A stretch of 64,000 nt of DNA from Xanthobacteraceae bacterium (GCA_049647485.1 JBARXT010000197.1:184-64183); one strand, 5' to 3'; shown: positions 3,513-37,598, numbered from the stretch's first letter. Numbers and translations: made by a program. Notes: generated by a model from the letters alone, not told the origin.

Positions 3513-4733
3513 TTGAAGATTTTGCTTCTTACGAGCGAATTCTCTCCGGCGATGGGTGGCATCGGAACCTACGCACGCGAGATCGCTACGGCAGCAATCG
3601 GGCTCGGAGCTGAAGTGACCCTGATTGCACCGGACTATGGATCCGATTCGACTTCCGATGATCGGAGACTGCCGTTTCAAGTTCGTCGTTTTCGCGGCGA
3701 TCTTCACTCGATGAAGAACCTGCCGGCGAAAATCCGGTTGACGCGCGATCGGGTTGCCTCCGAGGCTTACGATGTCGTTCACGCGGCCGATTGGCCCTTC
3801 TTCATCCCGACCGCCCTGTCGCGACGCCGTACGTCCGCACGCTTCATCGTCACGGTGCATGGCACCGAGATCAACGAAACACAAACACGGCTAAAGCGTC
3901 TCGCCATTGCCACGACGGGCGTTTTCGGATCACGCACCGAAGTCGTCGCCAATAGCCGATATACGCGTGACCTGTTTCAACGACGCTTCTCCATAGATTC
4001 GAATCGGATCAAGGCTGTCCCGCTTGGCGTGTCCGGCTTCTGGTTCGGACCACGCGCTTCGCGCAACGCCGTTCGGCAAACTCATGGGATTCCGGATGAT
4101 AAAATCGTCATGGTGACCGTTGCTCGGCTCACTCGACGCAAAGGTCATCATATGGCCCTCGCCGCACTCGCCCGTTTACCGGATGAGATACGCAGACGGA
4201 TCGTCTGGCTGATCGTGGGTCCTCCGGGAGAAGCGGATTATGTCGATCAATTGCGTCGTCTCGCTTCGGAATCGGATTGCGATATCCGCATGCCCGGCAA
4301 ACTTTCGGATCGCGACATTCGCGATCTCTATGGCGCATGTGATTTCTTCTGCCTCACGGGAGTTCCGGATCCCTCCGGTCGCATCGAGGGTTTCGGGCTC
4401 GTTTATCTGGAGGCTGCCGCGGTTGGCTTGCCGAGCGTCGCCACGGCGATCGGCGGCGTGCCCGATGCCGTCGTCGCAAACAAGACCGGCGCTCTCGTTG
4501 AGCCATCGATCGACGCAATCGCTCACGCCATCAACCGCCTTGTCACCGAACGCGAACTGCGCGTCACCCTGGCGGAGCACGCCAGGATGCACGCCCGCAC
4601 ATTGTCTTGGGAACGTTGCGCGGCCGAAACTTACGGCTTGCCGCATTCGGCTGAACGAAACGCACGACACATGCAAGCGTCACACCAGGCGAGTGCCCAT
4701 GGCGAAAGATTGCAGATTCCGGCCGAAGATTGA
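3513..4733 (+). CDS. GT4-family glycosyltransferase
   Basis: From ORF 3363..4733. The GT4 N-terminus KILLLTSEFSPAMGGIGTY begins at an in-frame TTG at 3513, just after the upstream stop at 3503-3505, so the start is uncertain. The E-x7-E motif reads EGFGLVYLEAAAVGLPSV. Confidence 0.7.
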   Translation: MKILLLTSEFSPAMGGIGTYAREIATAAIGLGAEVTLIAPDYGSDSTSDDRRLPFQVRRFRGDLHSMKNLPAKIRLTRDRVASEAYDVVHAADWPFFIPTALSRRRTSARFIVTVHGTEINETQTRLKRLAIATTGVFGSRTEVVANSRYTRDLFQRRFSIDSNRIKAVPLGVSGFWFGPRASRNAVRQTHGIPDDKIVMVTVARLTRRKGHHMALAALARLPDEIRRRIVWLIVGPPGEADYVDQLRRLASESDCDIRMPGKLSDRDIRDLYGACDFFCLTGVPDPSGRIEGFGLVYLEAAAVGLPSVATAIGGVPDAVVANKTGALVEPSIDAIAHAINRLVTERELRVTLAEHARMHARTLSWERCAAETYGLPHSAERNARHMQASHQASAHGERLQIPAED

Positions 4734-4776
4734 CCCTCGAGATCAACGACCCGGAGACGGCGTGTTCAAACATCTG

Positions 4777-5181
4777 ATGCTGTTTCTCGTCGCAGTGGCC
4801 ACGCTTGCCGCAATGCCGGCTCGTGCCGAGAGTTGCACCAAGAGCCGCGATTACCTTCTCGGTGGCAGCGCGGGAGATTTGCCAGGACCGGCGGACACGT
4901 ACCGCAATCTTTTCAAGGTCTGCCTCGACACGATCTCGATGCCCAATGTGAAGGACGCCTTTGTTTTGCGCGACGGTGGCATCGCTGCAATTCCGAAGCA
5001 GGACACCATCCCTGCCACCGCCGCAACGCTGTCGCGGTTCTGCAACGCGTACCCTCGTGCCACTCTTCGCTTTCTCGGCCGCAAGGACCTGCAGCGGGGC
5101 TTCGGAATCGGACGGATCGTGCAGATTTCTTCAACCGGATCGACATCCTGCCCTCAGATCAAGGGCAATGCATTTCGCTAG
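4777..5181 (+). CDS. Small secreted hypothetical protein with four Cys
   Basis: This is the tail of ORF 4240..5181. MLFLVAVATLAAMPARA-ES looks like a Sec signal peptide, with an alternative GTG start at 4762. The mature part of about 115 aa has four spaced Cys. I recognise no family. Confidence 0.5.
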   Translation: MLFLVAVATLAAMPARAESCTKSRDYLLGGSAGDLPGPADTYRNLFKVCLDTISMPNVKDAFVLRDGGIAAIPKQDTIPATAATLSRFCNAYPRATLRFLGRKDLQRGFGIGRIVQISSTGSTSCPQIKGNAFR

Positions 5182-5278
5182 TCTACGTAATGCTGCCGGA
5201 TGGTGATGGTCAACGAGGCTCAGGCATCGTCCCGGGTGATCGGACAGCCGATCGCAATATAAGCGCGAACCGATTTCG

Positions 5279-6823
5279 CTATCCGATACGGCGCTCGCGG
5301 CCCTTCCAGAACGGATCGCGTACCGCGCGGCGGAGCAACTTTCCAACCGGGCTTTTCGGCACCTCGTTGATGAAGTGCACCGACTTCGGCACTTTATAGC
5401 CGGCGAGCCTATCGCGGGCGAAGGCCATCAGCGCGGCGTCGTCCGCCTGCTGATCGGGCCGTAGCGCGACAAAGGCGGCGACCGCCTCGCCCCACTTGTC
5501 GTCCGGAATGCCGACCACCACTACCTCGCGCACTGCCGGATGCGCGGCAAGTGCATCCTCGACCTCGCGCGGATAGACGTTGTATCCGCCGGTGACGATC
5601 ATGTCCGATGTGCGGTCAACGAGATAAAGGTAGCCGTCCTCGTCGAAGCGGCCGACGTCGCGCGTGCGAATGAAGCCGCCAGGCAGCGCCATCTGCGCGT
5701 TAAGTTCCGGCGCATCGAAATAGCCGCGCATCATGAACGGCGATCGCAGCGCGATCTCCCCGACTTCACCCGGCGTGACCTCATTGCCATCCTCGTCCAC
5801 CAGACGGATCTCGCAATCGATGCTCGGCCGTCCACAAGCGGCGAGGCGCTGCTCCGCGTTCGGACCGATGTGATCCTCCTTGGTCAGGTGCGTGATGAAC
5901 ACGGGCGCCTCAGTCTGCCCGTAATATTGCAGGAAGCGCGGGCCCCACAATTTGAGCGCGCGGTTGATGGTCGGGCGCGGCATCGGCGACGCGCCATAGA
6001 TGATCGAACGCACGGAGTTGAAATCCGCCTCCGCGATGCCGGGCTGGTCCAGCAGCATACCGAGCATGGTCGGCACCATGTTGAGCGCGGTCGGCTTCCA
6101 ACGCTCGACCGCCTCGATATACGACGCCGGCGTGAAACCGGGGAGCACCGCCGCCGTCGCACCACTGATCCAGTACGGCAGGATGAAGCAGCCGCTGGCG
6201 TGGATCATCGATGCAGCGTGCAACATGATGTCGCCTTCTCGCACGTCGTGATTGGCGAGGATATTCAGTGCCATCGCCGCCCAACTCGCCTGGGTGTGCT
6301 CGACGGCTTTCAACTTGCCGGTGGTGCCGGAGGTGAAGATGGTAATGACGATGTCCTCGGCTTCCGGCTTGCGGTCGGGCGGCGTCGTCGGCTGGGCTTT
6401 CGCCAGCGCTTGAAGATCGCTCGTGTTGGCGGCATCGCCGATGCTGATGGTCCGCAATCCCGGCATGGCCTCCGCCAGTTCGCGCGCGCGATCGGCAAGG
6501 TCGGCGCCGTGCAGCAGGATGCCAACTCCCGCGCCCTGCAGCATCTGCTGCTGCTCCGCCTCTGAGAGCCGCGCGTTGAGCGGCACCCGCGCCAGCCGCG
6601 CTTTCGCGAAACCGAAATCCACAGGAATGGTGAACACCGAATTGTTCAGCAACAACCCGACCCTGGTGCCGACCGCCAGTTCCAGCGTATTGATGAAGAC
6701 GTTGGCGATCTGGTTCGAGAGTTGGTCCACTTGCGTGAAGGTAAGCTTGTCGTTGCCATACATCACCGCCGTTCGCGATCCAAAATAGACCGCGCCGCGG
6801 CGCACCAACTCCGTCATCAGCAT
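5279..6823 (-). CDS. AMP-dependent acyl-CoA synthetase/ligase
   Basis: From ORF 5279..7330, trimmed to MLMTELVRRG at 6823; the upstream 169 aa are Arg/Gly-rich junk. AMP-binding motifs are present: TSGTTGKLKAV, YGQTE, TRDVG and VPKSPVGK. Confidence 0.85.
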   Translation of the reverse strand: MLMTELVRRGAVYFGSRTAVMYGNDKLTFTQVDQLSNQIANVFINTLELAVGTRVGLLLNNSVFTIPVDFGFAKARLARVPLNARLSEAEQQQMLQGAGVGILLHGADLADRARELAEAMPGLRTISIGDAANTSDLQALAKAQPTTPPDRKPEAEDIVITIFTSGTTGKLKAVEHTQASWAAMALNILANHDVREGDIMLHAASMIHASGCFILPYWISGATAAVLPGFTPASYIEAVERWKPTALNMVPTMLGMLLDQPGIAEADFNSVRSIIYGASPMPRPTINRALKLWGPRFLQYYGQTEAPVFITHLTKEDHIGPNAEQRLAACGRPSIDCEIRLVDEDGNEVTPGEVGEIALRSPFMMRGYFDAPELNAQMALPGGFIRTRDVGRFDEDGYLYLVDRTSDMIVTGGYNVYPREVEDALAAHPAVREVVVVGIPDDKWGEAVAAFVALRPDQQADDAALMAFARDRLAGYKVPKSVHFINEVPKSPVGKLLRRAVRDPFWKGRERRIG

Positions 6824-6870
6824 CGCAATCTCCCGCTTTGTTTCTACCGGCTTGTACCATCCGGGAGAGG

Positions 6871-7656
6871 TCAGCGCCCTGGCCACGACGGCTTCCGCTT
6901 CTCCCCGAAGGCTTTCAAGCCTTCCTTGGCATCCTCGGTCATCGCCAACAACGCGATCTGGCTTTCGGTGTAGGCAATCGCCTCGTCGAACGACATCGCA
7001 GCAATGGCGCGCATGGCGTATTTGCCGCGGCGAATTGCTGTCGGCGACTTGTCGGTGAGGCGGCCAATCAGCCACTCGACTTTGGCGTCGAGTTCTCCGG
7101 CCGGCGCGATATGGTTGACGAGACCGGCGGCCTGCGCGGCGTGGACATCGAACGGCTCGCCGGTCAGCGACCACTCGTTGATCAGCCGCCGCGGAGCCAG
7201 CGATTGCAGCAGGCTCATCACCTGCATCGGGAACACGCCGACCTTGACTTCCGGCAGGCCAAAGATCGCCGTCTCCGTCGCCACCGCCATATCGGTCATG
7301 CACAGCAAGCCCATGCCGCCGGCCATGCACACGCCATTGATGCGCGCGATCGACGGCTTGGTAGCGTTCTGCGACAATCGCAACAGGTCGGCGTAATCGA
7401 CGTTGGGCTTGGCGAAATCCATCGCAGCAAAAGCGCCGCCGGTGTTCGCCAGGTCGGCGCCGGCGCAGAATGCCTTGTCGCCCGCTCCGGTCAGCACGAT
7501 GACGCGGATGGCGGGATCGTCATGCGCCTCGCGATAGCCGCGCACGATGCCGGCAATCACTTCGGCGTTGAGCGCGTTGCGCTTCTCGGGGCGATTGATG
7601 GTGATCCAGAGGGCCTGCCCGCGCTTCTCCTGCACTACGCTCGTATTGTCCGCCAT
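6871..7656 (-). CDS. Enoyl-CoA hydratase/isomerase (crotonase fold)
   Basis: 261 aa. Family features are ITINRPEKRNAL, FCAGADL, the oxyanion-hole segment GVCMAGG, and the C-terminal EGLKAFGEKRKP. Confidence 0.9.
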   Translation of the reverse strand: MADNTSVVQEKRGQALWITINRPEKRNALNAEVIAGIVRGYREAHDDPAIRVIVLTGAGDKAFCAGADLANTGGAFAAMDFAKPNVDYADLLRLSQNATKPSIARINGVCMAGGMGLLCMTDMAVATETAIFGLPEVKVGVFPMQVMSLLQSLAPRRLINEWSLTGEPFDVHAAQAAGLVNHIAPAGELDAKVEWLIGRLTDKSPTAIRRGKYAMRAIAAMSFDEAIAYTESQIALLAMTEDAKEGLKAFGEKRKPSWPGR

Positions 7657-7675
7657 CGTCTACCGTGTCCTGTGG

Positions 7676-9669
<1,994 letters not shown>

Positions 9670-9673
<4 letters not shown>

Positions 9674-11292
9674 GGCCGCGCCACCGAGAACTGCATGCGA
9701 TGCGGCGTGCAAACGTCGCCCTCGCGGCAAATCGCCATCACTTCGGCGAGCACCGCGCGAGTGTCGCGCGGATCGATGACGCCATCATCGAGCACGCGAG
9801 CGCTGGTCGAGAACACGTCCATCTGGCCATCGAATACCGCTGTAATCTTGGCCTTCATCGCATCGATCTTATCGCGCTCGACCGGTGCGCCCTTGCGGGC
9901 GGCGGCGGCCTCGGTGACGATCGCCATGGTTTCCGCCGCCTGCTCGCCGCCCATCACCGCCGTCTTGGCGTTCGGCCACGAGAAGCAAAAGCGCGGATGG
10001 AAGCCGCGCCCGCACATGCCGTAATTGCCAGCCCCGAACGACGCGCCGCAATAGATGGTGATTTGTGGCACGGTGGCGCTCGTCACCGCCTGGATCATCT
10101 TCGAGCCGTGCTTGATCATGCCGGCTTCTTCATAAGCCTTGCCGACCATGTAGCCGGTGGTGTTGTTGAGATAAAGCAGCGGCGTCTGAGACTGGCAGCA
10201 CGCCTGAATGAAATGCGTCGCCTTGTTGGCTCCGGCGGGATCGAGCGGCCCGTTGTTGGTGATGATGCCGATGGCATGGCCTTCGATGCGCGCCTGTCCG
10301 CACACCGTCGCCGGCCCGTAATCCGATCCGAACTCGACGAAATCGGAATCGTCGACAAAACGCGCGATAGCCTGCCGCATGTCGACGGGGCGCTTGTGGT
10401 CCATCGGCATGATACCGAGCAGTTCCTCGACGTCATAGCGCGGTGGTCGCGCCTGGATGCGCTTCTCGTCGGCTTGCGGCCGATCCCAGTCAAGCCCGGC
10501 CATGATATCGCGCGCGATGCGCAGCGCGTCGCGGTCGTCTTCCGCAAGATAGTCGCCAAGGCCGGAAACGCTCGTGTGCATCACCGCGCCGCCGAGTTCT
10601 TCCTCGGTGGCGATCTCACCGGTCGCGGCTTTCAGCAGCGGCGGCCCGGCCAGGAACGCGCGGGTGCGACCGCGTACCATGACGATGTAGTCCGACAGGC
10701 CGGTCTGGTACGCGCCGCCCGCAGTGGACGAACCGTGCGTCACCGTCACCACCGGCAATCCTGCCGCCGACAGCCGCGCCAGGTTGCGGAAGATATTGCC
10801 GCCGCGCACGAAGTCCTCGACGCGATAGCGCAACAGGTTGGCGCCGGCGCTTTCCACCAGTTGCACGTAAGGCAGCCGGTTTTCCAGCGCCAACTCCTGC
10901 ACCCGCAAGGTCTTGTCGAGGCCGTAGGGCTGCAACGCGCCGGCATCGATGCCAGCGTCGTTGGCGCTGACCATGCAGCGAATGCCGGAGACGAAGCCGA
11001 TGCCGGCGACAAGGCCGCCGCCCGGCGCGCTCTTGTCCGGGTCCGGCACGTCGAACATGTAACCGGCGAGCGTCGAGAGTTCGAGAAACGGCGCGCCGGG
11101 GTCGAGCACCAGCGCCACGCGCTCACGCGGCAGCAACTGGTGGCGCTTGTGGAAGCGATCCTTGGCGGCGGCGGACTTGGCACGGCTGCGCTCCTCCAGC
11201 GTCCGCATCCGCTCGATCAGAGCCAACATGCCGTCGCGGTTGGCCTTGAAACCGGCGCTGCCGGTCGCGATGGTCGATTCAATGACAGCCAT
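9670..11292 (-). CDS. Acyl-CoA carboxylase carboxyltransferase (beta) subunit, MCC/GCC-like but divergent
   Basis: 540 aa. LLPRERVALVLDPGAPFLELSTLAG and STAGGAY are present. The block that reads NDATVKGGTYY in canonical MCC-beta reads NDAGIDAGALQPYG here. Confidence 0.85.
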
Positions 11293-11330
11293 ATTGCGAT
11301 CGTTTCTCCAGAACTTTAAGGACGCGCCAT

Positions 11331-11417
11331 CGTCCTGAGGTATGAGCGAAGCGAGCCTCGAAGAATGACCGTCGCCCTTCGAGGTCGTCGCTTGTGCGAC
11401 GGCACCTCAGGGTGACG
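11331..11417. repeat. REP-like element, family C (copy 1)
   Basis: The element reads CGTCCTGAGG..GCGAAGCGAGCCTCGAAG...CTTCGAGG..CACCTCAGGGTGACG. It is intergenic, between the synthetase and the carboxyltransferase genes. Confidence 0.65.
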
Positions 11418-11444
11418 GTAATCGCTCCACACGCCCATCCCGCA

Positions 11445-13040
11445 TTACCCTTGCGCGAAATGTTCGCTGAACTGCTGGCGCAACTCGACTTTGCGCAGCT
11501 TGCCGGTGGCGGTCATTGGCATGTCGTCCAGCAGCTTGACGAACTTCGGCACCTGAAAGCCGCCGAGGTGCTTGCGGCAATGCTCGATAATCGCGCCCTC
11601 GTCCGCCTGCGCGCCCGGCTTGAGCTTGATGAAGGCCGATACCGCCTCACCCCACTGCGGGTGCGGGAGGCCGACTACGGCGGCGGCAAGCACCGCCGGG
11701 TGGGCCATCAAGGTCTCCTCGATTTTCACCGAGGCGACGTTCTCGCCGCCGGACTTGATCATGTCCTTCTTCCGATCGAGGAACAGAACCTCGCCGTGAT
11801 CATCGATCAAACCAAGGTCGCCGGTGTGATGCCAGCCGAACTTGCGCGCGTCCTCGGTCGCCTTCGGGTCCTTGTAGTAACCGAGCATGACGTTGGGGCC
11901 GCGATGCACAATCTCGCCGACCTGATTGCGTGGCAGCAGATTTCCGTCGTCGTCCATGATCGCGGTTTCGTTGACGATCATCGACTCGCCCCAGTAGTTG
12001 CCGAAGCGCTTGAGCTGGCGATCCGGCTGCGACATCGTCGTCGCCGGATACATCTCGGTCTGGCCGCTCGGCTGCACGAAATTCGGGCACAGTTCGTCAA
12101 CGCATCGCTCCAGCAACGGGCGCGGCATCGGCGCCATGGTATAGATGCAGGTCCGCAAAGTGGAGAGATCGAACTCCTTGCGACGCGGGTGATCGAGGAT
12201 CGCCTGATACATCAGCGGCAGACCGATGAAGATCGAGAGCTTGTCGCGCTCGATCGCCTCCATGCAAGCCACCGGATCAAAACCACGCATCAGCGCCATC
12301 TTGCCGCCGACCGCGAGATAGGTCAGCAGCAATACGTGCGCCGCGCAGTGGAACAGCGGGAACTGGCCGGTGATGCCATCGTTGCGGTCGAGATGCATCT
12401 CGATGGCATTGCTCATTGCCGCCATCACCACCGCGAGATGACAATGCATCGCGCCCTTCGGCCGCGACGTGGTGCCGCTGGTGTAGATGATCATCGCCAG
12501 ATCGCGGTCGTCGAAGGCGATTTCCGGCTCGATGTCGGATTGGCCTTGAAGCAGCGCGTTGAATTCTTCCAGCCCCTGCTCTTTCGCCTTGCCGGCAAGA
12601 TCGACCGCGACCATCTTGACGTCACGCTGCTCCAGCGCCGCACGACGATCCGCCTGAGCGTGGAGATTGTCATCGATCAGCGCGAAGCGAACGCCGGCGT
12701 GATCGAGGATATAGCTCATGTCGTCGGGGCCGAGCATGGTGTTGATCGGCACCCACACCAGTCCGGCGCGATGGATGCCGAACAACGCTTTGACGAATTC
12801 GACCGAGTTGTTGCAGATGGTCGAAATCTTGTCGCCGGGCTTGAGGCCGCGCGCGACGAGATAATTGGCGAAGCGGTTGGCGTCGCGCTCCAGCTCCGTG
12901 TAGCTGACGCAGCGCACGCCTTCGGTGAGCGCGATGCGGTCAGGGAAACGGCGTGCGGCGCGTTTCAACAGGTCGCCGACGGCGACGCGACCGATGCGGC
13001 CCGGTCCCGGTACGCCACCGGTTGCTTCCAGATTACTCAT
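11445..13040 (-). CDS. AMP-dependent acyl-CoA synthetase
   Basis: 531 aa. YTSGTTSRPKGA, SGQTE, HTGDLG and MPMTATGK are present. A GGAGGAAG Shine-Dalgarno sequence lies just upstream of the ATG at 13040. Confidence 0.9.
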   Translation of the reverse strand: MSNLEATGGVPGPGRIGRVAVGDLLKRAARRFPDRIALTEGVRCVSYTELERDANRFANYLVARGLKPGDKISTICNNSVEFVKALFGIHRAGLVWVPINTMLGPDDMSYILDHAGVRFALIDDNLHAQADRRAALEQRDVKMVAVDLAGKAKEQGLEEFNALLQGQSDIEPEIAFDDRDLAMIIYTSGTTSRPKGAMHCHLAVVMAAMSNAIEMHLDRNDGITGQFPLFHCAAHVLLLTYLAVGGKMALMRGFDPVACMEAIERDKLSIFIGLPLMYQAILDHPRRKEFDLSTLRTCIYTMAPMPRPLLERCVDELCPNFVQPSGQTEMYPATTMSQPDRQLKRFGNYWGESMIVNETAIMDDDGNLLPRNQVGEIVHRGPNVMLGYYKDPKATEDARKFGWHHTGDLGLIDDHGEVLFLDRKKDMIKSGGENVASVKIEETLMAHPAVLAAAVVGLPHPQWGEAVSAFIKLKPGAQADEGAIIEHCRKHLGGFQVPKFVKLLDDMPMTATGKLRKVELRQQFSEHFAQG

Positions 13041-13105
13041 GATGATCTTCCTCCCGATTGTGCAATGCCGCGGCTCTGCGGCCGCTGGCCTTCCGTTATT
13101 TGATG

Positions 13106-13972
13106 CTAGTTCCTGATTCCGAAAATCTGCCGCGCTTCGGCCGGGCTTGCAATCGTGCGGCCGGCCTCGCGAGCATATTGCGCCATGGTTTCGATCAATT
13201 GGCCGTTGGACGTCACCTTGCTGCCGTCGGGGCGATAGAACGTATCCTCAAGTCCCGTGCGCAAATGACCGCCGAGTTCAGCACAACGGCGATGCAGCGG
13301 CCAGATTTCGGCGCGGCCGATCGCGGTGACCTGGAATTTTGCGTCTGGCAGCTTCAGCTTGATGAGAATGGGCAGCAATTCGGGATCGGCCGGCATTCCC
13401 GACGCAACCCCCATGACGAAGTTGTATTCCAGCGGGCCCGCATACATGCCGGTCTGGCGATACATTCCGACGCAACGGACAATGCCGACATCGAAGCATT
13501 CGAACTCCGGCACCGTGCCGGCATCCTTCATCGCATCGAGAAAGTCCTGCACCTTCTCCACCGAATTGTCGAACATCATCGGCGGCCAGGCCCAAGTGTT
13601 GTCGGCTTTCACTTTCAGGTAGTTCAGCGAGCCGGCATTGCAGGCCGCCATTTCGGGCTTCGTCTCGCGCACGCAGGCGAGCGGGCCGGCATATTCGGGA
13701 CCTGAGGTGCCAGTGGTGTGATTGATGATGACGCCCGGACAGGCCTCGCGGATCGCCTGCTGAATCTCGCGCGAAACGCTGACCTCCCACGATGGCAGGT
13801 GACCCTTGTTCGGGGCCTGCTGGCGCAAATGGATATGCATGACGCTGGCGCCGGCGTCGTACGCAGCCTTGGCCTCGCGCGCCATTTCTTTCGGCGTTAC
13901 CGGCACATGATGCTGCTTGGGATCGGTCAGCACGCCGTTCAGCGCGCAGGTGATGACAACCTTGTCGCTCAT
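13106..13972 (-). CDS. Beta-keto acid cleavage enzyme family protein (BKACE / DUF849, 3-keto-5-aminohexanoate cleavage enzyme-like)
   Basis: 288 aa. The family N-terminus VVITCALNG...TPKEMA...AGASVMHIHLR is present, and the length is typical for a TIM-barrel protein. Confidence 0.8.
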   Translation of the reverse strand: MSDKVVITCALNGVLTDPKQHHVPVTPKEMAREAKAAYDAGASVMHIHLRQQAPNKGHLPSWEVSVSREIQQAIREACPGVIINHTTGTSGPEYAGPLACVRETKPEMAACNAGSLNYLKVKADNTWAWPPMMFDNSVEKVQDFLDAMKDAGTVPEFECFDVGIVRCVGMYRQTGMYAGPLEYNFVMGVASGMPADPELLPILIKLKLPDAKFQVTAIGRAEIWPLHRRCAELGGHLRTGLEDTFYRPDGSKVTSNGQLIETMAQYAREAGRTIASPAEARQIFGIRN

Positions 13973-14139
13973 GCCGGAAAAGCCCTCATTTGCCTGCCGA
14001 TCATGGTCGGCGGATGCGTGAGGACATGATGCGAAACCGCTTGCACGGCTTCTTGCGTCAACCGGCTATTGCGATGTCGTGGGCGTCAAGGGTTCGCTGA
14101 AGAGGGATTGGTGTATTCGGGTACGTTTCATTACAGCCC

Positions 14140-14226
14140 GTCATGGCCGGATTTATTCCGGCCATCCACGTCTTGATCTGCCGCCTGCAAGAATCGTGGA
14201 TGACCGGGACAAGCCCGGTCATGACG
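14140..14226. repeat. REP-like hairpin element, family A (copy 1, double hairpin)
   Basis: The element reads GTCATGGCCGGATTTATTCCGGCCATCCACG ... CGTGGATGACCGGGACAAGCCCGGTCATGACG. It is intergenic, between the BKACE and AraC genes. Confidence 0.75.
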
Positions 14227-14241
14227 AAATAATCGAGGCTC

Positions 14242-15057
14242 TCAAGATCTGCCGGAACGCAAACCGAGTTCGATCGACGCATCGCTGCGATAGATCGCGA
14301 GATCGCGCGAGCCGATGAAGATGGAGCGCGGCTTCAATCCGTAGAAACGGCGGATGGAATGGCTGAAATGCGTCGAATCCGGATAGCCGATGTCCTGCGC
14401 CAGATGCGCGAGATTGATGTCCTCATTGACGTAATGCAGCAGATGCCGCGCCCGCTTCCAGGCCCTGAAGGCGCGGAACGACACGCCGGTCTGCTCCTTG
14501 AACAGATGCAGGAAGCGCGATTGCGACAACCGCACCGCCGCCGCGCACTCGGCTGCGTTGACATTGACATTGGAGAATTCGCACAGCCTCGCGATGGAAT
14601 CGACGATCCGCTGGTCAAGCGCACGCGCCGCGAGCGGCTCGCCGAAAAAGATCGTGTCAAACTCGCAGGTGGTGAACCCCTCGCGGCGGCCGGTGATGCG
14701 CAGCGCATCGTAGGCGCCGCGAATCCGCGCCGTCATCGCCTCGCCGGCCGGACCGAGCAGACGCTGTTCGAGCGCCCGCAGCGCCGACGGCAGCACCGTT
14801 TCCGGCTCGATCAGTATGCAAATGGTCGAGGGATAGTCACTTTCGACGCTGTGCACGGTATAGGGCGCCACCACGACCATCTCACCGCGCGTGACCGTGC
14901 CGCCTTGCACGACGCTGAGTTCTCCATGCAGCGCGACATAAACATTCAGGCCGCCGCTGGTTCGCCGTTTCGGCTTGCCGAGCAGTCCGGCATAGAAAAC
15001 CCGCTCCGGACTGATCAACATCAGATGTCCTGAAGCCGGGCGCGCGCCGTCGTCCAT
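14242..15057 (-). CDS. AraC-family transcriptional regulator
   Basis: From ORF 14242..15546, trimmed to MDDGARP at 15057. The C-terminal double HTH reads SQSRFLHLFKEQTGVSFRAFRAWKRARH ... IGYPDSTHFSHSIRRFYGLKP. Confidence 0.8.
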   Translation of the reverse strand: MDDGARPASGHLMLISPERVFYAGLLGKPKRRTSGGLNVYVALHGELSVVQGGTVTRGEMVVVAPYTVHSVESDYPSTICILIEPETVLPSALRALEQRLLGPAGEAMTARIRGAYDALRITGRREGFTTCEFDTIFFGEPLAARALDQRIVDSIARLCEFSNVNVNAAECAAAVRLSQSRFLHLFKEQTGVSFRAFRAWKRARHLLHYVNEDINLAHLAQDIGYPDSTHFSHSIRRFYGLKPRSIFIGSRDLAIYRSDASIELGLRSGRS

Positions 15058-15235
15058 GCTGTTCGCTCCCGCGATCGCCGTTCCTGTCGCGCCGGGTCCT
15101 TGGTCCCCGGCGCGGCCCTCTCCGGGGCTTGCCGAGCATACAGCAACCGGACCGGAAGTCACCGCCGAACGGCCCCGGTCTCGACGTGTCGCGACGCCTG
15201 CGGCGAAGCATCGCGCCGGTGTGGCTGCGCTCTCC

Positions 15236-15886
15236 TCAGGTTCGCCGCGGAACCTTTTGCTCCTCGCTGGCGCGGGTTTCCGCAGCCACGGCGCGCTGGT
15301 AGCCCTCGCGCTGCTGCAGGCGCGCCCAATAGGCCGCGACGTTCGGCCCGAAATCCTTGGCGAGCCCGATGTTTCCGGCGAGGCGCAGCGCATAGCCGTT
15401 GACGATATCGGCGGCGGTGAAGCGCCCGGCGCACAGCGTTTCCGTCTGCCCGGTCGCCGCCTCAACGACACGCAGCCGGCCCAGGAACCATTTCGCGTAA
15501 TCCTGCACCACCTGCGGATTGCGCCGCTCCTCCGGCTCCAACTCACCGTAGCGGAGCACCAGCGTCTGCGGAAAGGTCAACGTCGCGTCGCTGAAATACA
15601 TCCAGTTCAGGAACGCCCCAAAGGCCGGCTCGTCCGGCCCGACGATCAGCGGCGTCGGCCCGTGACGGGTGCCAAGATAGTGACAGATCCCGGAAGACTC
15701 CGACATCCTGGTGTCGCCATCGATCATGAACGGGATGGTGCCGAGCGGATTGATCGCGAGATATTCCTTCGCCAGCACGCGCGGCGGGAACGGGAGCATC
15801 TTGAGTTCATAGGGAAGCCCAAGCTCCTCCAGCATCCACAACGGACGAAATGAGCGCGCGCCGAAGCAGTGATAGAGCGTGATCAT
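15236..15886 (-). CDS. Glutathione S-transferase
   Basis: From ORF 15236..15940. The start MITLYHCFGARSFRPLW at 15886 overlaps the stop of the upstream dehydrogenase (ATGA). A thioredoxin-like N-terminal domain is followed by a helical C-terminal domain. Confidence 0.85.
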   Translation of the reverse strand: MITLYHCFGARSFRPLWMLEELGLPYELKMLPFPPRVLAKEYLAINPLGTIPFMIDGDTRMSESSGICHYLGTRHGPTPLIVGPDEPAFGAFLNWMYFSDATLTFPQTLVLRYGELEPEERRNPQVVQDYAKWFLGRLRVVEAATGQTETLCAGRFTAADIVNGYALRLAGNIGLAKDFGPNVAAYWARLQQREGYQRAVAAETRASEEQKVPRRT

Positions 15887-17058
15887 TTCGCCTCCGGCTT
15901 GTTGGTTTTCGCTCCCGGCAGCGTGCCCATCATCTTGCACAGGATCGACAGCATCACTTCATCGGCGCCGCCGCCGATCGAAGTCAGGCGGCCGTCGCGA
16001 TAGGCGCGGCTCACCGGCGTCTCGTTCATGAAGCCCATACCGCCCCAATATTGCAGGCAGGCGTCAGGCACTTCGCGGTTGAGCCGCCCCGCGCGCAGCT
16101 TCGCCATGGTGGCGAGCTTGGTGACATCCTCGCCCGCGACCAGGGCCTCGGCCGCGCGATAAATCAGCGAGCGCAATAACTCGACTTCGGTTTGCAGCTC
16201 GGCAAGCCGGAAATGCACCACCTGATTATCGAGAATGCTTTGGCCGAACGCCTTGCGGTTGCGCGTGTATTCGATGGTATCATCAATGATGACCTCATGG
16301 CGCTTCAGCCCGGCGGCCGCGCCCCACAACCGCTCTTCCTGAAACTGGATCATCTGATAGGTGAAGCCCTTGCCTTCCTCGCCGATCCGGTTGCGTTTCG
16401 GCACGCGGACGTCCTCGAAGAAAATCTGCGCGGTGTCCGACGAGCGCATGCCCATCTTGTCAAGCTTGCGGGCGACGTTAACGCCCTTGCTCTTCATCGG
16501 AACGCAAATCAGCGACTTGTTGCGGTGAACTGCTCCGTCGCTGGTATTGGCCAAAAGGCAAATCCAGTCGGCCTGGGTGCCGTTGGTGATCCACAGCTTG
16601 CCGCCATTGATGACGTAGTCGTCGCCGTCCGAACGCGCATTGGTCTTGATCGAAGCGACGTCCGAACCCGCGCCCGGCTCGGAAACACCGATGCAGGCCA
16701 CCATGTCCCCGGCGACCGCCGGAGCAAGAAATTCGCGTCGCACCTCGTCGGAGCCGAACTTCGCCAACGCCGGCGTCGCCATGTCGGTCTGCACGCCGAT
16801 GGCCATCGGCACCCCGCCGCAGCGAATGTTGCCGAGTTCTTCCGCCATCATCAACGCGTAGCTGTAGTCGAGCCCTTGCCCGCCGAACTCGACCGGCTTG
16901 TTGAGACCGAGAAAGCCGAGATCGCCGAGTTTCTTGAACACCTCGTGCGCCGGGAAGATGCCGTCGGCTTCCCACTGATCGACATGCGGGTTGATCTCGT
17001 TGGCGATGAACCTTTGCAGAATGCGGCGCGGCTCGTCGTGATCGGCGGTGAAAAGCAT
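15883..17058 (-). CDS. Acyl-CoA dehydrogenase
   Basis: 391 aa. ACAD N-terminal, middle and C-terminal domain features are present: GVSEPGAGSD, KLWITNG and YWGGMGF...RDGRLTSIGGGADEV. Confidence 0.9.
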   Translation of the reverse strand: MLFTADHDEPRRILQRFIANEINPHVDQWEADGIFPAHEVFKKLGDLGFLGLNKPVEFGGQGLDYSYALMMAEELGNIRCGGVPMAIGVQTDMATPALAKFGSDEVRREFLAPAVAGDMVACIGVSEPGAGSDVASIKTNARSDGDDYVINGGKLWITNGTQADWICLLANTSDGAVHRNKSLICVPMKSKGVNVARKLDKMGMRSSDTAQIFFEDVRVPKRNRIGEEGKGFTYQMIQFQEERLWGAAAGLKRHEVIIDDTIEYTRNRKAFGQSILDNQVVHFRLAELQTEVELLRSLIYRAAEALVAGEDVTKLATMAKLRAGRLNREVPDACLQYWGGMGFMNETPVSRAYRDGRLTSIGGGADEVMLSILCKMMGTLPGAKTNKPEAK

Positions 17059-17092
17059 CCTCGGTCGTTCCTCTCGTTTTATTGTAATCTTG

Positions 17093-18241
17093 TTACAGTC
17101 CCATCTGACGGCTGGCGAGATCCTTCATGATCTCCTCGGTGCCGCCGCCAATCGCATTGACCTTGACCTCGCGATAGATGCGCTCGACCTTGACGCCGCG
17201 CATGAAACCCGCGCCGCCAAAGATCTGCACGGCTTCGGAAGCGCAGAACGCCATGGTCTGGGTTGCCTGGTTCTTCAGCATGCAGATTTCGGCCACCGGA
17301 CTTTCACCCTGATCGAGCCGCCACGCCAGCATTTCCAGCATGGCCTGCGAAGCCGCGACGCGTTGCGCCATGTCGACCAGCTTGTGACGGATTACCTGAT
17401 GCTGGGTCAACGGCTTGCCGAAGGTGTGACGCTGCTTCGCATACTCGATGGCTTCGTCGAGGCAGACCCGGGCCGCCGCGGTGCAACCCGCCGCCATGGT
17501 CAGGCGCTCGCTGTTGAAATTATGCATGATGATCTTGAAGCCGGCACCTTCCTCGCCAAGCAGATTGCCGGCGGGCACGCGGCAATTGTCGAAGTGCAAG
17601 GTCGCGGTATCGGACGCCCACCAACCCATTTTCTTCAGCTGTGTGCGTGACAGGCCGGGCGTATCGCCGGGGATCACGAGCAGGCTGACGCCGCCCGGCC
17701 CCGGCCCGCCGGTGCGCACCGCCGTCGTGATATAGTCCGCGCGCATTCCCGAGGTGATGAAGGTCTTCTCGCCGTTGACCACGTAAACGTCGCCCTCACG
17801 CCGCGCGCTGGTATGCAGGTTGGCGACGTCGGAACCCCCGCTCGGCTCGGTGATGGCCAGCGCCGAGATTTTCTCGCCGGACAGAATTTGCGGTAGCACC
17901 TTCGCCTTGAATTCCGCCGTGCCGGCACGCGCGATCGGCGGCGCACCGATCGAGTGACTCTTCAGGCTGGCGCTGACACCGCCGGCGCCCGCGCGCGCCA
18001 ATTCCTGCACCGAGACGATCCACATGAAATTGTCAGCCGGCGTGCCGCCGTATTCCTCCGGAAAGCCGAGCCCGAGCAGGCCGATCTCCGCCGCCTTGCG
18101 ATAGAGATCACGCGGAAAGGTGCCGGCTTCGTCCCATTCATGGGCGTAAGGCTCGATTTCCTTCTCGACGAAGCGGCGCACCACATCACGAAATGCCAGA
18201 TGATCGGCATTGTAGAACGGGCTCTTGGCCACGGCAGACAC
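17093..18241 (-). CDS. Acyl-CoA dehydrogenase
   Basis: 382 aa. ITEPSGGSDV, KTFITSG and QIFGGAGFM...YREVKVNAIGGGTEEI are present. Confidence 0.9.
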   Translation of the reverse strand: MSAVAKSPFYNADHLAFRDVVRRFVEKEIEPYAHEWDEAGTFPRDLYRKAAEIGLLGLGFPEEYGGTPADNFMWIVSVQELARAGAGGVSASLKSHSIGAPPIARAGTAEFKAKVLPQILSGEKISALAITEPSGGSDVANLHTSARREGDVYVVNGEKTFITSGMRADYITTAVRTGGPGPGGVSLLVIPGDTPGLSRTQLKKMGWWASDTATLHFDNCRVPAGNLLGEEGAGFKIIMHNFNSERLTMAAGCTAAARVCLDEAIEYAKQRHTFGKPLTQHQVIRHKLVDMAQRVAASQAMLEMLAWRLDQGESPVAEICMLKNQATQTMAFCASEAVQIFGGAGFMRGVKVERIYREVKVNAIGGGTEEIMKDLASRQMGL

Positions 18242-18380
18242 CTTCCTGTCATCCCCGGTATTGCGCGGCAGGATGCCGGCAAACCGAATAGGTCACTTGC
18301 GTGGAGTCGCTGATCGCCACAATGGCCGTGGCGGCGCCCGCTGCGGCGTCCACACCGTCATCAACAGCCAATGGTAGCGC

Positions 18381-18392
18381 GAAACAGGTTTC
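18381..18392. promoter_or_regulatory. GAAAC-AG-GTTTC palindrome upstream of the TetR gene (candidate autoregulatory / dehydrogenase-operon operator)
   Basis: It lies in the divergent region between the ACAD (start 18241) and the TetR gene (start 18460). Its form matches the G/CAAAC-N2-4-GTTTG/C type reported for the fatty-acid-responsive TetR regulator PsrA. Confidence 0.4.
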
Positions 18393-18459
18393 TGGCCTAA
18401 AGTTGACAGAACATCCGCTCTTTCAGTCCGACCACTTCCATACCGAGAAGCCGCAAAAC

Positions 18460-19212
18460 ATGGCCCCGAGGCGACGGACGACGCAAGATTCCAGCCGCCC
18501 TTTTCCCACGATGCCGCCAGCCAAATCGCCCAGCCGCGCCAGAACCGCACCCCCGACTGCCCGCCGGCGCCGACCGACGGTCAATGACATCGATGTCGCG
18601 GCGCACGAGGCGGCCGATGCCGCGACCGCGTCGAAATCGCAGAAGTCGCGCGAGGCCATTCTCGAATCCGCCGCGAAACTGTTCCGTCGCCAGGGCTATT
18701 CCGCGACGACGCTGCGCCAGATCGCCGATCTCGCCGAGATCCAGGCCGGCAGCATCTACTATTATTTCGACTCCAAGAACGCGATCCTCGACGAGGTGCT
18801 CGACGAGGGCCTGCGCCGCGTTTTCAACGGGGTGAAGCTGAAGCTCAAGCAGGCCGGCGACGTCTCGCACCGCCAGAAAATCGCGCTGGCCATCGAGGCG
18901 CATCTTGTCGCGCTGCACGACGCCAGCGATTTCACCTCGGCCAACATTCGCATCTATGGCCAGTTGCCGGAGCATCTCAAAGGTCCGCACCGCGCTATCC
19001 GGCGGGCTTACGCGCGCTATTGGGACCGCCTGCTCTCGGACGCCCAAAAGGCCGGAGCCATCCGCGCCGACATCGAACTCATTCCGCTACGCATTTTCGT
19101 GCTCGGTGCGCTGAACTGGACGGTAGAGTGGTTCGATCTCAGTAAGAAAGACGCCGTGCAAAAACTGGCGCACCGCACCGAGTCGATCATTTTCGACGGC
19201 GTAAAGCGGTAA
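18460..19212 (+). CDS. TetR/AcrR-family transcriptional regulator with a long basic Pro/Arg-rich N-terminal tail
   Basis: From ORF 18301..19212. In-frame ATGs lie at 18460 and 18511, with none closer to the HTH. The HTH reads REAILESAAKLFRRQGYSATTLRQIADLAEIQAGSIYYYFDSK. Confidence 0.8.
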   Translation: MAPRRRTTQDSSRPFPTMPPAKSPSRARTAPPTARRRRPTVNDIDVAAHEAADAATASKSQKSREAILESAAKLFRRQGYSATTLRQIADLAEIQAGSIYYYFDSKNAILDEVLDEGLRRVFNGVKLKLKQAGDVSHRQKIALAIEAHLVALHDASDFTSANIRIYGQLPEHLKGPHRAIRRAYARYWDRLLSDAQKAGAIRADIELIPLRIFVLGALNWTVEWFDLSKKDAVQKLAHRTESIIFDGVKR

Positions 19213-19240
19213 ACGCGACGCTCCTCGAAGCGTCTGTATC

Positions 19241-19332
19241 ATGGCCGTGCTTGTCCCGGCCATTCACGCCGCATGCGTTATTGTAGAAAGAAAGAAAGAC
19301 GTGGATGCTCGCGACAAGCGCGGGCATGACGG
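19241..19332. repeat. REP-like hairpin element, family A (copy 2)
   Basis: The element reads ATGGCCGTGCTTGTCCCGGCCATTCACG ... GACGTGGATGCTCGCGACAAGCGCGGGCATGACGG. It lies downstream of the TetR gene. Confidence 0.7.
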
Positions 19333-19352
19333 AGGTGGGCGTAAACCGCAAT

Positions 19353-19437
19353 CGTCATTGCGGGCGAAGCGAAGCAATCCAGAAAGGCACGAAATAGGGG
19401 CTGGATTGCTTCACCGCTTACGCTCCGCGGTAAGACG
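19353..19437. repeat. REP-like hairpin element, family B
   Basis: The outer segments are CGTCATTGCGGGCGAAGC and GCTTACGCTCCGCGGTAAGACG. The perfect 12-bp inner stem is GAAGCAATCCAG (19371-19382) paired with CTGGATTGCTTC (19401-19412). Confidence 0.7.
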
Positions 19438-19483
19438 GTTAGGGGTGCGCGATGCTGAAACTACCTGCCCTTCGAACTATCTC

Positions 19484-20269
19484 TCACTTACCCTGCCAGT
19501 TCGGCTTGCGTTTTTCGGTAAACGCCTTCGGCCCTTCGATAGCATCCTGACTGGCATAAACCTCCTCGTGAAGGCGGCCAGCCTCGATCAATCCCTTTTC
19601 AAGGCCAAGGTCCATCGCCGCCAGGACGCTTCCCTTGGCCGCCTTCACCGACAGCGGCGCGCCCTCGACGATCTTGCGCGCCAGTTGCAGCGCGCGGGCG
19701 CGTACTGCATCCGGCGTATCCTCGAGATAGTTCAGAAAGCCGTAGCTCGCGAGTTGCTCGATCGGTACGGTTTCACCGGTCAGCACCAGTTCCATCAGCA
19801 CCGGCTGCGGCAACATCCAGAGCAGCGGCACAGCCCATGGTGAGCCCCGACCCATCTTGACCTCGGTAATGCCGGCGCGTGTGCCGCGCAGGCCGACGCG
19901 CAAATCCGACTTGATCGCAAGCAGCATGCCGCCCGCCATTAGCGATCCGGTCATCGCCGCGATGATCGGCTTCGTGACATTGCGCATCGCGGTCTGCATC
20001 GGGTCGCGCATCAAGGTCAGGATATCGACGCCGTCGCGCGCTCGTATCTCGGCAGCCTGCTTGAGATCGAGCCCGGCCGAAAACACGCCGCAATCCGCCG
20101 ACGTCAGAATGACGACGCGCACGGCCTTGTCGTCCTCAACCCGAGCCCATGCTTCCGTCAGGCCATTCATCGCCTCGACCGACAGCGCGTTCTTGCGCTC
20201 GGGGCGGTCGATGATGACGGTGGCGATGCCGTCCTCGACGACATAACGGATCGGCGCATTCTCCGGCAT
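19484..20269 (-). CDS. Enoyl-CoA hydratase/isomerase
   Basis: From ORF 19484..20296, with the start moved to the ATG at 20269 (MPENAPIRYVV). The upstream ATG lies inside the palindromic operator. IDRPERKNAL, FSAGLDL and EGPKAFTEKRKP are present. Confidence 0.85.
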   Translation of the reverse strand: MPENAPIRYVVEDGIATVIIDRPERKNALSVEAMNGLTEAWARVEDDKAVRVVILTSADCGVFSAGLDLKQAAEIRARDGVDILTLMRDPMQTAMRNVTKPIIAAMTGSLMAGGMLLAIKSDLRVGLRGTRAGITEVKMGRGSPWAVPLLWMLPQPVLMELVLTGETVPIEQLASYGFLNYLEDTPDAVRARALQLARKIVEGAPLSVKAAKGSVLAAMDLGLEKGLIEAGRLHEEVYASQDAIEGPKAFTEKRKPNWQGK

Positions 20270-20288
20270 CGGGAGCCCTTTCACAAAT

Positions 20289-20304
20289 TCTAACATCTGT
20301 TAGA
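20289..20304. promoter_or_regulatory. Palindromic operator copy 1: TCTAACA-TC-TGTTAGA
   Basis: It lies in the divergent region between the hydratase (start 20269) and the SDR (start 20364). It is an A/T-rich perfect inverted repeat in GC-rich DNA. Confidence 0.7.
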
Positions 20305-20363
20305 TTATCGCAAAGTCGCCTTGGCCGCGACCCCAAACTGCAACGATCAACCTCAGGACCGCC

Positions 20364-21221
20364 ATGCAACTCACAGCCAAGATGCGCTTCGCTCCCGACC
20401 TGCTGAAGGATCAGGTCGCCCTCGTCACCGGCGGCGGCACCGGCATGGGCCGCGCCACCGCGCTGGAGATGGCGCAGTCCGGCGCCAGGATTGTGGTGCT
20501 GGGGCGACGGCCGGAACCGATCGAGGATTGCGCCAAAACCATCCGCGAGGCCGGCGGCGATGCCATTGCGATTTCCGGCGACATTCGGCAGCCGGAACAG
20601 ATCGAAGCGGCGATGGCGCAAATCCGCAGTGAATTCGGTAAGCTGAACATTCTGGTCAACAACGCCGGCGGACAATTCGTCACGCCGGCGCGCGAACTGA
20701 ACAACAAGGGGTTCGAGACCGTCATTCGTAACAATCTGGTCGGCTCGTGGCAGATGACGAAGGCGGTCGCCGATCATTTCATGTTCGAAAATGGCGGCTC
20801 CATCGTATTCGTTACCGCTTGTGTGCGGTCCGGCCTCAGCGGCTTCGTTCACACCGCGGCCGCGCGTGGCGGCGTGCTGGCGATGATGAAGACGCTGGCG
20901 TTCGAATGGGCCGAGTTCGGCATCCGCCTCAACTGCGTCGCCCCCGGCACGGTGAAGACCGAGGGCATGGGCCACTATCCGATTGCGCCCGAGCAGTGGC
21001 TAAAGCTCAACCGCAACGTCATGGGCCACATGGGCGACGTCGAGGACATCGCGGCCGCGATCATCTTCCTCGCCTCGCCGCTCGGCAAATTCGTCACCGG
21101 TGAGGAATGGTACATCGACGGCGGCGAGACGCTGCACCTCGCCCACGACGCGCGCCAGATGATCGACATGATGAAATTCACCACGCGCGAACGCGGCGAC
21201 GGCCAGCCGGGGAAGGGTTAA
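20364..21221 (+). CDS. SDR-family oxidoreductase (2,4-dienoyl-CoA / enoyl-CoA reductase-like)
   Basis: 285 aa. The Rossmann motif VTGGGTGMGRA and NILVNNAGG are present. An alternative start lies at 20382. Confidence 0.85.
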   Translation: MQLTAKMRFAPDLLKDQVALVTGGGTGMGRATALEMAQSGARIVVLGRRPEPIEDCAKTIREAGGDAIAISGDIRQPEQIEAAMAQIRSEFGKLNILVNNAGGQFVTPARELNNKGFETVIRNNLVGSWQMTKAVADHFMFENGGSIVFVTACVRSGLSGFVHTAAARGGVLAMMKTLAFEWAEFGIRLNCVAPGTVKTEGMGHYPIAPEQWLKLNRNVMGHMGDVEDIAAAIIFLASPLGKFVTGEEWYIDGGETLHLAHDARQMIDMMKFTTRERGDGQPGKG

Positions 21222-21224
21222 GTC

Positions 21225-25451: not shown

Positions 25452-25526
25452 AACGAGCTATTGTCAATCGCGGTGACGCGGTATTGTACCCCCCACGCTT
25501 TCAATTCAAAGACCGTAGGACAGCCT

Positions 25527-31936: not shown

Positions 31937-31990
31937 TTGCAACGGCCGGGGCTTGTCCCTAAGCTCGCGCCGCCTTCACCGGAACCTGCC

Positions 31991-33154: not shown

Positions 33155-33166
33155 GACCGTGCCGCA

Positions 33167-34774: not shown

Positions 34775-34790
34775 TGACGGAGGACGCGCC

Positions 34791-36788: not shown

Positions 36789-36827
36789 TTGCGGCGTCGA
36801 CGACGCGAAGCAAACAGGGAGCACGTC

Positions 36828-37589: not shown

Positions 37590-37598
37590 ACGGCAGCC

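Follow-up and report, generated by a model that had tools for sequence, protein, structure and literature searches.

How can a bacterium complete the removal of a β-methyl branch when its carboxylase and hydratase genes lie beside no lyase gene? The question is raised by a 64,000-nucleotide stretch of DNA (GCA_049647485.1 JBARXT010000197.1:184-64183; hereafter the window), which is contig C197 of a 3.9-Mb metagenome-derived Xanthobacteraceae genome. Six genes on its minus strand begin with a member of the β-keto acid cleavage enzyme (BKACE, or DUF849) family and continue with an AMP-forming acyl-CoA synthetase (ACS1), the carboxyltransferase (CT) and biotin carboxylase (BC) subunits of an acyl-CoA carboxylase, an enoyl-CoA hydratase of the crotonase type, and a second synthetase (ACS2). 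A sequence-only reading of this DNA had noted that no lyase gene was present at the locus and that the BKACE was the sole candidate for C-C cleavage, and both observations were borne out. We propose that the locus directs an Atu-type (acyclic terpene utilisation) removal of the β-methyl branch from terpene-like 3-methyl-branched acyl-CoAs, in which the BKACE replaces AtuA as the cleavage enzyme. We assign this proposal a probability of about 0.4.

The carboxylase

The sequence-only reading described the carboxylase as divergent. A carboxylase is indeed encoded here, but rather than being vaguely divergent it carries the published signature of geranyl-CoA carboxylase (GCC). The closest solved relative of CT was the β subunit of Pseudomonas aeruginosa GCC (PaGCC; 5ikl_B, 615 bits), to which it is 53% identical, compared to 478 bits for the β subunit of methylcrotonyl-CoA carboxylase (MCC). 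GCC β subunits have a glycine (Gly162) where MCC β subunits have Phe191 preceded by a three-residue insertion (Jurado et al. 2015, PMC4673880). The window CT has Gly at the position of PaGCC Gly162 (FVRGGNIF, vs. FVEGARGF in PaGCC and EHFGRIFF in PaMCC) and lacks the three-residue (PDx) insertion. Its alignment to 5ikl_B begins at query residue 4 and chain residue 3, and therefore takes in the N-terminal helix that is present in GCC and absent from the β subunit of propionyl-CoA carboxylase. Three other CT paralogues of the MCC/GCC lineage in the genome (window 33167-34774, contig C203 and contigs C255/C256) all have the Phe and the insertion. Assignment of the window CT to MCC and leucine degradation was ruled out by the Gly, the missing insertion and the existence of these three separate MCC-type paralogues.

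The same division was seen in a survey of 401 sampled Pseudomonadota genomes, in which GCC-type CTs were at least 51% identical to the window CT (37 genomes) and MCC-type CTs no more than 48%. All GCC-type CTs examined had the Gly signature, and their clade received support of 100/99 on the CT tree. By sequence the window carboxylase is thus of the GCC type, and given the 53% identity its substrate may be a 3-methyl-2-enoyl-CoA of a chain length other than geranyl.

A second carboxylase cluster, of the MCC type, is found at 31937-38453 of the window and comprises an acyl-CoA dehydrogenase (ACAD), a CT with the Phe and the insertion, a BC and a canonical crotonase. An alpha/beta hydrolase gene stands where a lyase might be expected, and no gene for 3-hydroxy-3-methylglutaryl-CoA (HMG-CoA) lyase is nearby.

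The BKACE and its linkage to the carboxylase

The BKACE gene product matched PF05853 with 294.5 bits (cut-off 24.8), its residues 4-286 covering positions 1-274 of the 274 in the profile. In Kce, the family member of lysine fermentation, the zinc ligands are reportedly His46, His48 and Glu230, and the catalytic residues Glu143, Arg226 and Asp231. The window BKACE has their equivalents (H46, H48 and E242; E158, R238 and D243), all of which were invariant in 15 orthologues, and as judged by these residues it appears catalytically intact. The acidic Glu14 of Kce is replaced by Leu15, and an 11-residue insertion follows the NAG(S/T)LN motif. Membership of a characterised subfamily, the outcome named by the sequence-only reading as telling against it, was not found, as all NCBIfam equivalog cut-offs were missed (Kce, 198 vs. 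382 bits; 3-oxoadipate, 164 vs. 350; 3,5-dioxohexanoate, 158 vs. 430). The same genome also has a second, unrelated BKACE gene (contig C37:18329-19216; 363 bits to PF05853).

Among the 401 genomes, orthologues of at least 61% identity were present in 12, and every other BKACE was no more than 38% identical. In all 12 the gene lies beside a GCC-type CT. Eleven of these genomes are other than our own, and nine of them were inspected as loci, each with the BKACE gene within ~3 kb of the CT gene (9/9); the remaining two (G296 and G172) were judged by search coordinates only, which placed CT ~100 nt from BKACE. Gene orders vary widely, from CT-ACAD-BC-BKACE-ACAD-ECH (ECH, the hydratase) to BKACE and a glutathione S-transferase (GST)-like gene divergent from CT-BC. 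In three loci (L086, L087 and L090) the order SDR-CT-ACAD-(ECH)-BC-BKACE, where SDR denotes a short-chain dehydrogenase/reductase, corresponds to atuBCDEF plus BKACE, with no AtuA. The sequence-only reading had suggested a survey of gene neighbourhoods, and the co-occurrence of BKACE and carboxylase proved to be conserved in 12 of 12 genomes from several families with their gene order shuffled. The BKACE appears to belong to a distinct, uncharacterised subfamily that is linked to carboxylases.

We also compared 80 loci from closer relatives (Bradyrhizobium, Rhodopseudomonas and Xanthobacteraceae), counting for each gene those loci with enough flanking sequence. CT was downstream of BKACE in all 67 loci whose sequence ran on for at least 4 kb on that side, and BC in all 62 with at least 6.5 kb, an arrangement far from chance. 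An AraC-family regulator gene was upstream of BKACE in 67 of 75 loci, the GST-like gene was found in 54 of 56, and two ACAD genes, ACADa and ACADb, in 52 and 46 of 56, respectively. ACS1 was present in 44/62 loci, the crotonase in 17/61 and an ACS2 orthologue (at least 50% identity) in 12/61. The core unit is therefore BKACE, CT, BC, the ACADs and GST, to which particular clades have added the crotonase and the second ligase. This modifies the six-gene operon that had been described for the window. Its genes are real, but two of them are clade-specific, and the functional cluster is larger, reaching upstream through GST and the two ACADs (~5279-18241).

In seven loci from long-read metagenome-assembled genomes (L024, L026, L032, L034, L036, L062 and L072), CT, BC, ACS1 and ACAD genes were split over several frames. 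These are probably assembly frameshifts, not pseudogenes. An apparent loss of CT in three long-read loci was discarded as an artefact of frameshifts combined with the coverage filter.

Orthology to the Atu cluster

Three anchor loci (L103, L108 and L110), with CTs 91-92% identical to PaGCC β, have the gene order AtuA-SDR-CT-ACAD-ECH-BC, which is that of atuABCDEF. CT, ACADb and BC are the counterparts of AtuC, AtuD and AtuF, respectively. In five Pseudomonas-type genomes, the ACAD encoded next to AtuC shared 65-68% identity with ACADb, while the second-best match reached no more than 41%, and by this comparison ACADb is clearly and unambiguously the AtuD orthologue. BC was ~50% identical to the α subunit in the AtuF position of Pseudomonas atu loci, and the product of an SDR gene in the window was 38-43% identical to the SDR encoded directly upstream of CT (the AtuB position) in atu-type loci. 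A TetR-family regulator in the window was ~30% identical to the TetR adjoining AtuA (the AtuR position) in Pseudomonas-type loci. Copies of ACADa (54-72% identical) occur in both BKACE-type and AtuA-type clusters, a second ACAD of this type being common in atu-like clusters outside Pseudomonas, and copies of ACS1 (47-61% identical) occur in distant BKACE-type clusters. Since it combines a GCC-type carboxylase with an AtuD orthologue, we read the locus (~5279-18241) as an Atu-like cluster.

The hydratase scored 103 bits against 4zu2 vs. 154 bits against the best crotonase. It nevertheless shares with the enzymes in the AtuE position a GGxGL...PE pattern in which the first catalytic Glu has become Gly; at the GGxGL site, a canonical crotonase encoded elsewhere in the window reads GGGFEL. 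The GST-like gene also lies beside BKACE or ACADb in distant clusters, and against solved structures its product gave only distant, uncharacterised matches. In the most distant BKACE-type cluster, a gene of the MDMPI_N family (mycothiol maleylpyruvate isomerase-like; L091:8764-9600) is found between CT and BKACE, in the place of the GST. This substitution hints at a thiol-dependent isomerase step, but is suggestive only.

Alternation of BKACE with AtuA

The 37 genomes with a GCC-type CT comprise 12 with and 25 without a BKACE orthologue. An AtuA-family gene was present in 24 of the 25 genomes without BKACE, mostly in the long form (~600-650 aa) and adjoining CT, but in only three of the 12 with BKACE, where all were short-form open reading frames (ORFs; 458-486 aa) and none was near the cluster. 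AtuA was not found in the 64-kb window, and none of the inspected clusters contained both genes. Fisher tests of this alternation gave p = 1.6e-5 by genome and 0.006 by genus, values that overstate the association because kin are not independent. CTs linked to BKACE and CTs linked to AtuA are intermingled on the CT tree. The sister of L091 is a pair of AtuA-linked CTs from the same family (support 100/99), L087 clusters with L094 and L097, and L090 is placed near the Pseudomonas types. The partner of the carboxylase must therefore have been swapped at least three times.

HMG-CoA lyase was also missing from some genomes. No homologue was found in three of the 12 BKACE-type genomes (G072, G008 and G100), which are also without AtuA and in which PF00682 matched only two LeuA-sized ORFs each. 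Nor was one found in three of the 25 GCC genomes without BKACE (G233, G199 and G115). The latter are all AtuA-type and fit AtuA itself, rather than LiuE, as the lyase. No lyase gene was within 10 kb in any inspected cluster. As both flavours of cluster include lyase-less genomes, HMG-CoA lyase looks dispensable, and cleavage seems to be performed by BKACE in one flavour and by AtuA in the other. On this pattern of gene presence, the BKACE most likely does the work of AtuA and of HMG-CoA lyase alike.

The AtuA family itself comes in two forms, a long form beside GCC genes and a short form (~450-490 aa) elsewhere. A GCC-type CT is missing from 25 of the 52 genomes that have an AtuA-family gene, and the range of the family therefore extends beyond terpene use.

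Proposed pathway and alternatives

In the pathway that we propose, a CoA ligase (ACS1 or ACS2) would activate the acid and ACADb would then form the 3-methyl-2-enoyl-CoA. Because GCC is expected to accept the cis isomer alone, the GST-like protein may act as a thiol-dependent E-to-Z isomerase that sets the geometry the carboxylase needs. The carboxylase (CT and BC) would carboxylate the methyl group, the AtuE-like hydratase would yield 3-hydroxy-3-alkylglutaryl-CoA, and the BKACE would cleave this product to acetoacetate and a debranched acyl-CoA. The single Zn site of the BKACE could accommodate both halves of the last step, a retro-aldol reaction of the Zn-bound hydroxy-acid followed by the acyl exchange for which the family is known, as the products of the retro-aldol (acetyl-CoA and a free 3-oxo acid) are the normal BKACE substrate pair. 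We favour a BKACE that performs both halves since some genomes are without any other lyase. Direct conversion of this kind would make the BKACE a non-homologous, isofunctional replacement of AtuA with a reaction new to its family, and we hold this part of the proposal a little more tentatively than the whole.

Several observations weigh against the proposal. Characterised BKACEs all use a free β-keto acid and acetyl-CoA, and none is known to cleave a hydroxy-acyl-CoA. The function of the locus is predicted from sequence. Most Bradyrhizobium clusters are without a nearby hydratase, and the window hydratase is only ~30% identical to the enzymes in the AtuE position. Our genome has both an HMG-CoA lyase gene (contig C255, beside an MCC-type carboxylase) and a short AtuA-family gene (a 461-aa ORF at C295:648-1961, on a 2.7-kb contig). 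The three lyase-less BKACE-type genomes are drafts from two genera, and both BKACE and AtuA are missing from one of the GCC genomes (G224). Finally, the identity of the lyase in the Atu pathway is disputed: AtuA has tentatively been named as the lyase for 3-hydroxy-3-isohexenylglutaryl-CoA (PMC4847356), whereas a review gives this step to LiuE, not AtuA (PMC4097962).

The main rival is a two-enzyme version of the Atu route, in which a LiuE-like lyase encoded elsewhere would release acetyl-CoA and a free 3-oxo acid and the BKACE would perform its canonical reaction as a substitute for a thiolase. Such a division of labour requires no new BKACE chemistry, and LiuE has been reported to have lyase activity on the isohexenyl substrate in P. 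aeruginosa (PMC4097962). HMG-CoA lyase is present in 9/12 BKACE-type genomes, and the one copy in our genome adjoins an MCC-type paralogue. However, G072, G008 and G100 have the BKACE cluster and no lyase homologue, the inspected clusters have no lyase gene in their 10-kb surroundings, and a two-enzyme route does not by itself explain why BKACE and AtuA alternate. On balance we regard it as unlikely. It is less likely still that the BKACE shares the regulon but serves a different step, making the entry acyl-CoA from a β-keto acid (supplied as such or made by the SDR) while another enzyme cleaves later. Dehydrogenase-plus-BKACE logic is known from carnitine breakdown, an SDR gene is directly upstream of CT in several clusters, with a homologue 6 kb away here, and the lack of ACS1 in 18/62 related loci means that the CoA ester may be formed in some other way. 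However, the SDR occurs just as much in AtuA-type clusters, where it is AtuB, and so is not tied to BKACE, genomes with neither AtuA nor HMG-CoA lyase would be left with no cleavage enzyme, and the alternation again goes unexplained.

A supplement to the NetSyn preprint labels this kind of cluster 'probably fatty acid biosynthesis', and one may ask whether the genes form an acetyl- or acyl-CoA carboxylase set for that purpose, or whether BKACE and carboxylase are mere neighbours, with no branch removal in either case. We consider this highly improbable. The CT falls in the gamma-carboxylating MCC/GCC lineage and has the GCC signature, its partners are catabolic (acyl-CoA dehydrogenases, a hydratase and CoA ligases), the cluster is syntenic with atuBCDEF, and the linkage outlasts the shuffling of gene order across families. 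The fatty-acid biosynthesis reading was rejected on these four grounds.

Gene layout, neighbouring genes and regulatory DNA

The features of the locus are listed in Table 1. The six minus-strand genes, their coordinates, gaps and ATGA overlap agreed with the sequence-only reading when checked by ORFs and Pfam, each gene having a full-length Pfam match. From BKACE to ACS2 the intergenic distances are 65, 152, -4, 19 and 47 nt, the negative value reflecting the overlap of the BC start with the CT stop (ATGA at 9670-9673). An ACS2 start at GTG 7330 was dropped, as homologues fit the ATG at 6823. The true start of the TetR gene is probably downstream of 18301. No NCBIfam equivalog cut-off was reached by the BKACE, the ligases, the hydratase, the ACADs, the GST or the SDR. 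The nearest relatives are from Xanthobacteraceae, Bradyrhizobium and Rhodopseudomonas, and an origin of the DNA in Pseudomonas was rejected on that ground.

Table 1. Genes and other features of the BKACE-carboxylase locus and its surroundings (positions counted from the first letter of the window)
Feature	Position	Strand	Basis or remark
ACS2, second AMP-forming acyl-CoA synthetase, 514 aa	5279-6823	-	Pfam AMP-binding and AMP-binding_C
ECH, enoyl-CoA hydratase (crotonase)	6871-7656	-	Pfam ECH_1; AtuE-like active-site signature
BC, predicted biotin carboxylase/BT/BCCP α subunit (AtuF-like)	7676-9673	-	Biotin_carb_N, CPSase_L_D2, Biotin_carb_C, Biotin_lipoyl; EAMKM biotin motif
CT, carboxyltransferase β subunit, predicted GCC type (AtuC-like)	9670-11292	-	Pfam; 5ikl_B match; Gly signature
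REP-like palindromic repeat between ACS1 and CT	11365-11422		27-nt inverted arms
ACS1, AMP-forming acyl-CoA synthetase, putative AtuH-like role	11445-13040	-	Pfam AMP-binding
BKACE (DUF849)	13106-13972	-	PF05853, 294 bits
Conserved box, ATAGCnnGTTGACGCAAGAAGC (14069-14048) and CGCATCATG (14033-14025)	14025-14069	-	Upstream of BKACE
Compound REP-like palindrome in the AraC-BKACE gap	14139-14226		32-nt inverted arms, each with a 9-bp hairpin
AraC-family regulator	14242-15033	-	Pfam HTH_18
GST-like protein	15236-15886	-	Pfam GST_N; start overlaps ACADb stop
ACADb, AtuD orthologue (citronellyl-CoA dehydrogenase position)	15883-17058	-	65-68% identity to AtuD-position ACADs
ACADa, second acyl-CoA dehydrogenase	17093-18241	-	Pfam ACAD domains
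TetR-family regulator, divergent from ACADa, weakly AtuR-like	18301-19212	+	Pfam TetR_N and TetR_C_24
SDR homologous to the AtuB-position dehydrogenase	20364-21221	+	Pfam adh_short

Beyond the cluster, a FadH-like 2,4-dienoyl-CoA reductase (OYE and Pyr_redox_2 domains; 21225-23285) is encoded between the SDR and another ACAD, and fits the breakdown of unsaturated isoprenoid chains. A ligase of the acetyl-CoA synthetase type (ACAS_N; 25461-27491) scored below the cut-offs for acetate, propionate and acetoacetate ligases, and could activate acetoacetate or acetate released nearby.

The 152-nt gap between ACS1 and CT had been ascribed to a repetitive extragenic palindromic (REP) element, and it does hold a REP-like palindrome, of which 31 partial copies occur elsewhere in the same genome. 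In three close relatives (L004, L008 and L009) the gap is only 36 nt, which indicates a lineage-specific insertion into an otherwise tight operon, and the repeat appears to be a mobile REP-like element. The AraC gene was likewise located, as described, beyond a REP element upstream of BKACE. When the 269-nt gap between the two genes was compared with the genome by blastn, 74 hits were returned, 73 of them outside the gap itself, and the longest outside match, on contig C147, was a copy of 92 nt reaching across the palindrome.

Between this palindrome and BKACE, the box formed by ATAGCnnGTTGACGCAAGAAGC and CGCATCATG was at least 80% conserved over 27 loci, whereas the surrounding intergenic DNA was not conserved. 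The box is probably the promoter/operator of the BKACE operon and perhaps serves AraC. A palindrome, GAAACAGGTTTC, was found at 18381-18392, within the annotated span of the TetR ORF; a search for PsrA-type palindromes returned only this already known site at 18381, a count no better than chance. A pattern scan for promoters and terminators gave counts equal to those in shuffled sequence and thus says nothing on internal promoters, and an Rfam scan of 4500-21500 gave no match.

Significance and comparison with known systems

The proposed pathway gives a testable role to a large orphan group of BKACEs (ASMC group G3, NetSyn cluster 1). It would also extend the breakdown of terpene and isoprenoid acids beyond Pseudomonas, its main known home, and into Bradyrhizobium, Rhodopseudomonas and related soil bacteria. 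Ever since the discovery of the atu genes the role of AtuA has been in doubt, and its alternation with BKACE provides a genetic handle on it; if direct cleavage by the BKACE is true, the assignment of C-C cleavage in terpene breakdown to AtuA would be settled. BKACEs are already in use in synthetic carbon-fixation cycles, and one able to convert a branched hydroxy-acyl-CoA to acetoacetate and acyl-CoA would, if confirmed, be of interest to pathway engineers.

The sequence-only reading did not recognise the gene combination as a described pathway. We found no published pathway for it, but the gene association itself is already in the NetSyn preprint (bioRxiv 10.1101/2023.02.15.528638, supplementary table), where cluster 1 of BKACE ASMC group G3 is entered as a 'pathway to discover'. 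The neighbours given there for alpha- and beta-proteobacterial hosts are the same as here: acyl-CoA dehydrogenase, carboxyl transferase, CPSase-type protein (biotin carboxylase), enoyl-CoA hydratase, long-chain CoA ligase, SDR, GST and AraC. However, the preprint does not call the carboxylase GCC-type, draw a relation to Atu or report the alternation with AtuA. In the library searched, no paper joins 3-keto-5-aminohexanoate (the usual annotation) with geranyl-CoA carboxylase, and we found none with an Atu reading of the BKACE cluster or with the BKACE/AtuA alternation.

Within its family, the window BKACE shares the full-length domain, the Zn ligands and the catalytic residues with Kce and with the dehydrocarnitine, 3-oxoadipate and 3,5-dioxohexanoate members. 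It differs in being no more than 38% identical to other BKACEs in the sampled genomes, in the Leu for Glu14 and the 11-residue insertion, and in being partnered by a biotin carboxylase rather than by a dehydrogenase or aminomutase. The Liu pathway (MCC, methylglutaconyl-CoA hydratase and HMG-CoA lyase) follows the same logic as that proposed here, in which a β-methyl group is carboxylated and the product is hydrated and cleaved to acetoacetate. However, the window CT lacks the Phe and insertion of MCC, its cluster contains no lyase gene, and three MCC-type paralogues are encoded separately in the genome, the sole HMG-CoA lyase gene adjoining one of them.

The closest likeness is to the Atu cluster of Pseudomonas (atuRABCDEFGH). 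Both have a CT of the Gly162 type, an AtuD orthologue, an AtuF-like α subunit, a hydratase with the Glu-to-Gly change and CoA ligases (AtuH-like), and an AtuB-like SDR and a TetR regulator are encoded near the window cluster; related clusters of the beta-proteobacterial type retain the B-C-D-E-F order. The host here is a Xanthobacteraceae bacterium, and its cluster adds the GST-like protein, a second ACAD, an AraC regulator and a second ligase. In place of AtuA it has the BKACE, and the predicted by-product would be acetoacetate, in contrast to the acetate and acetyl-CoA of the Atu pathway.

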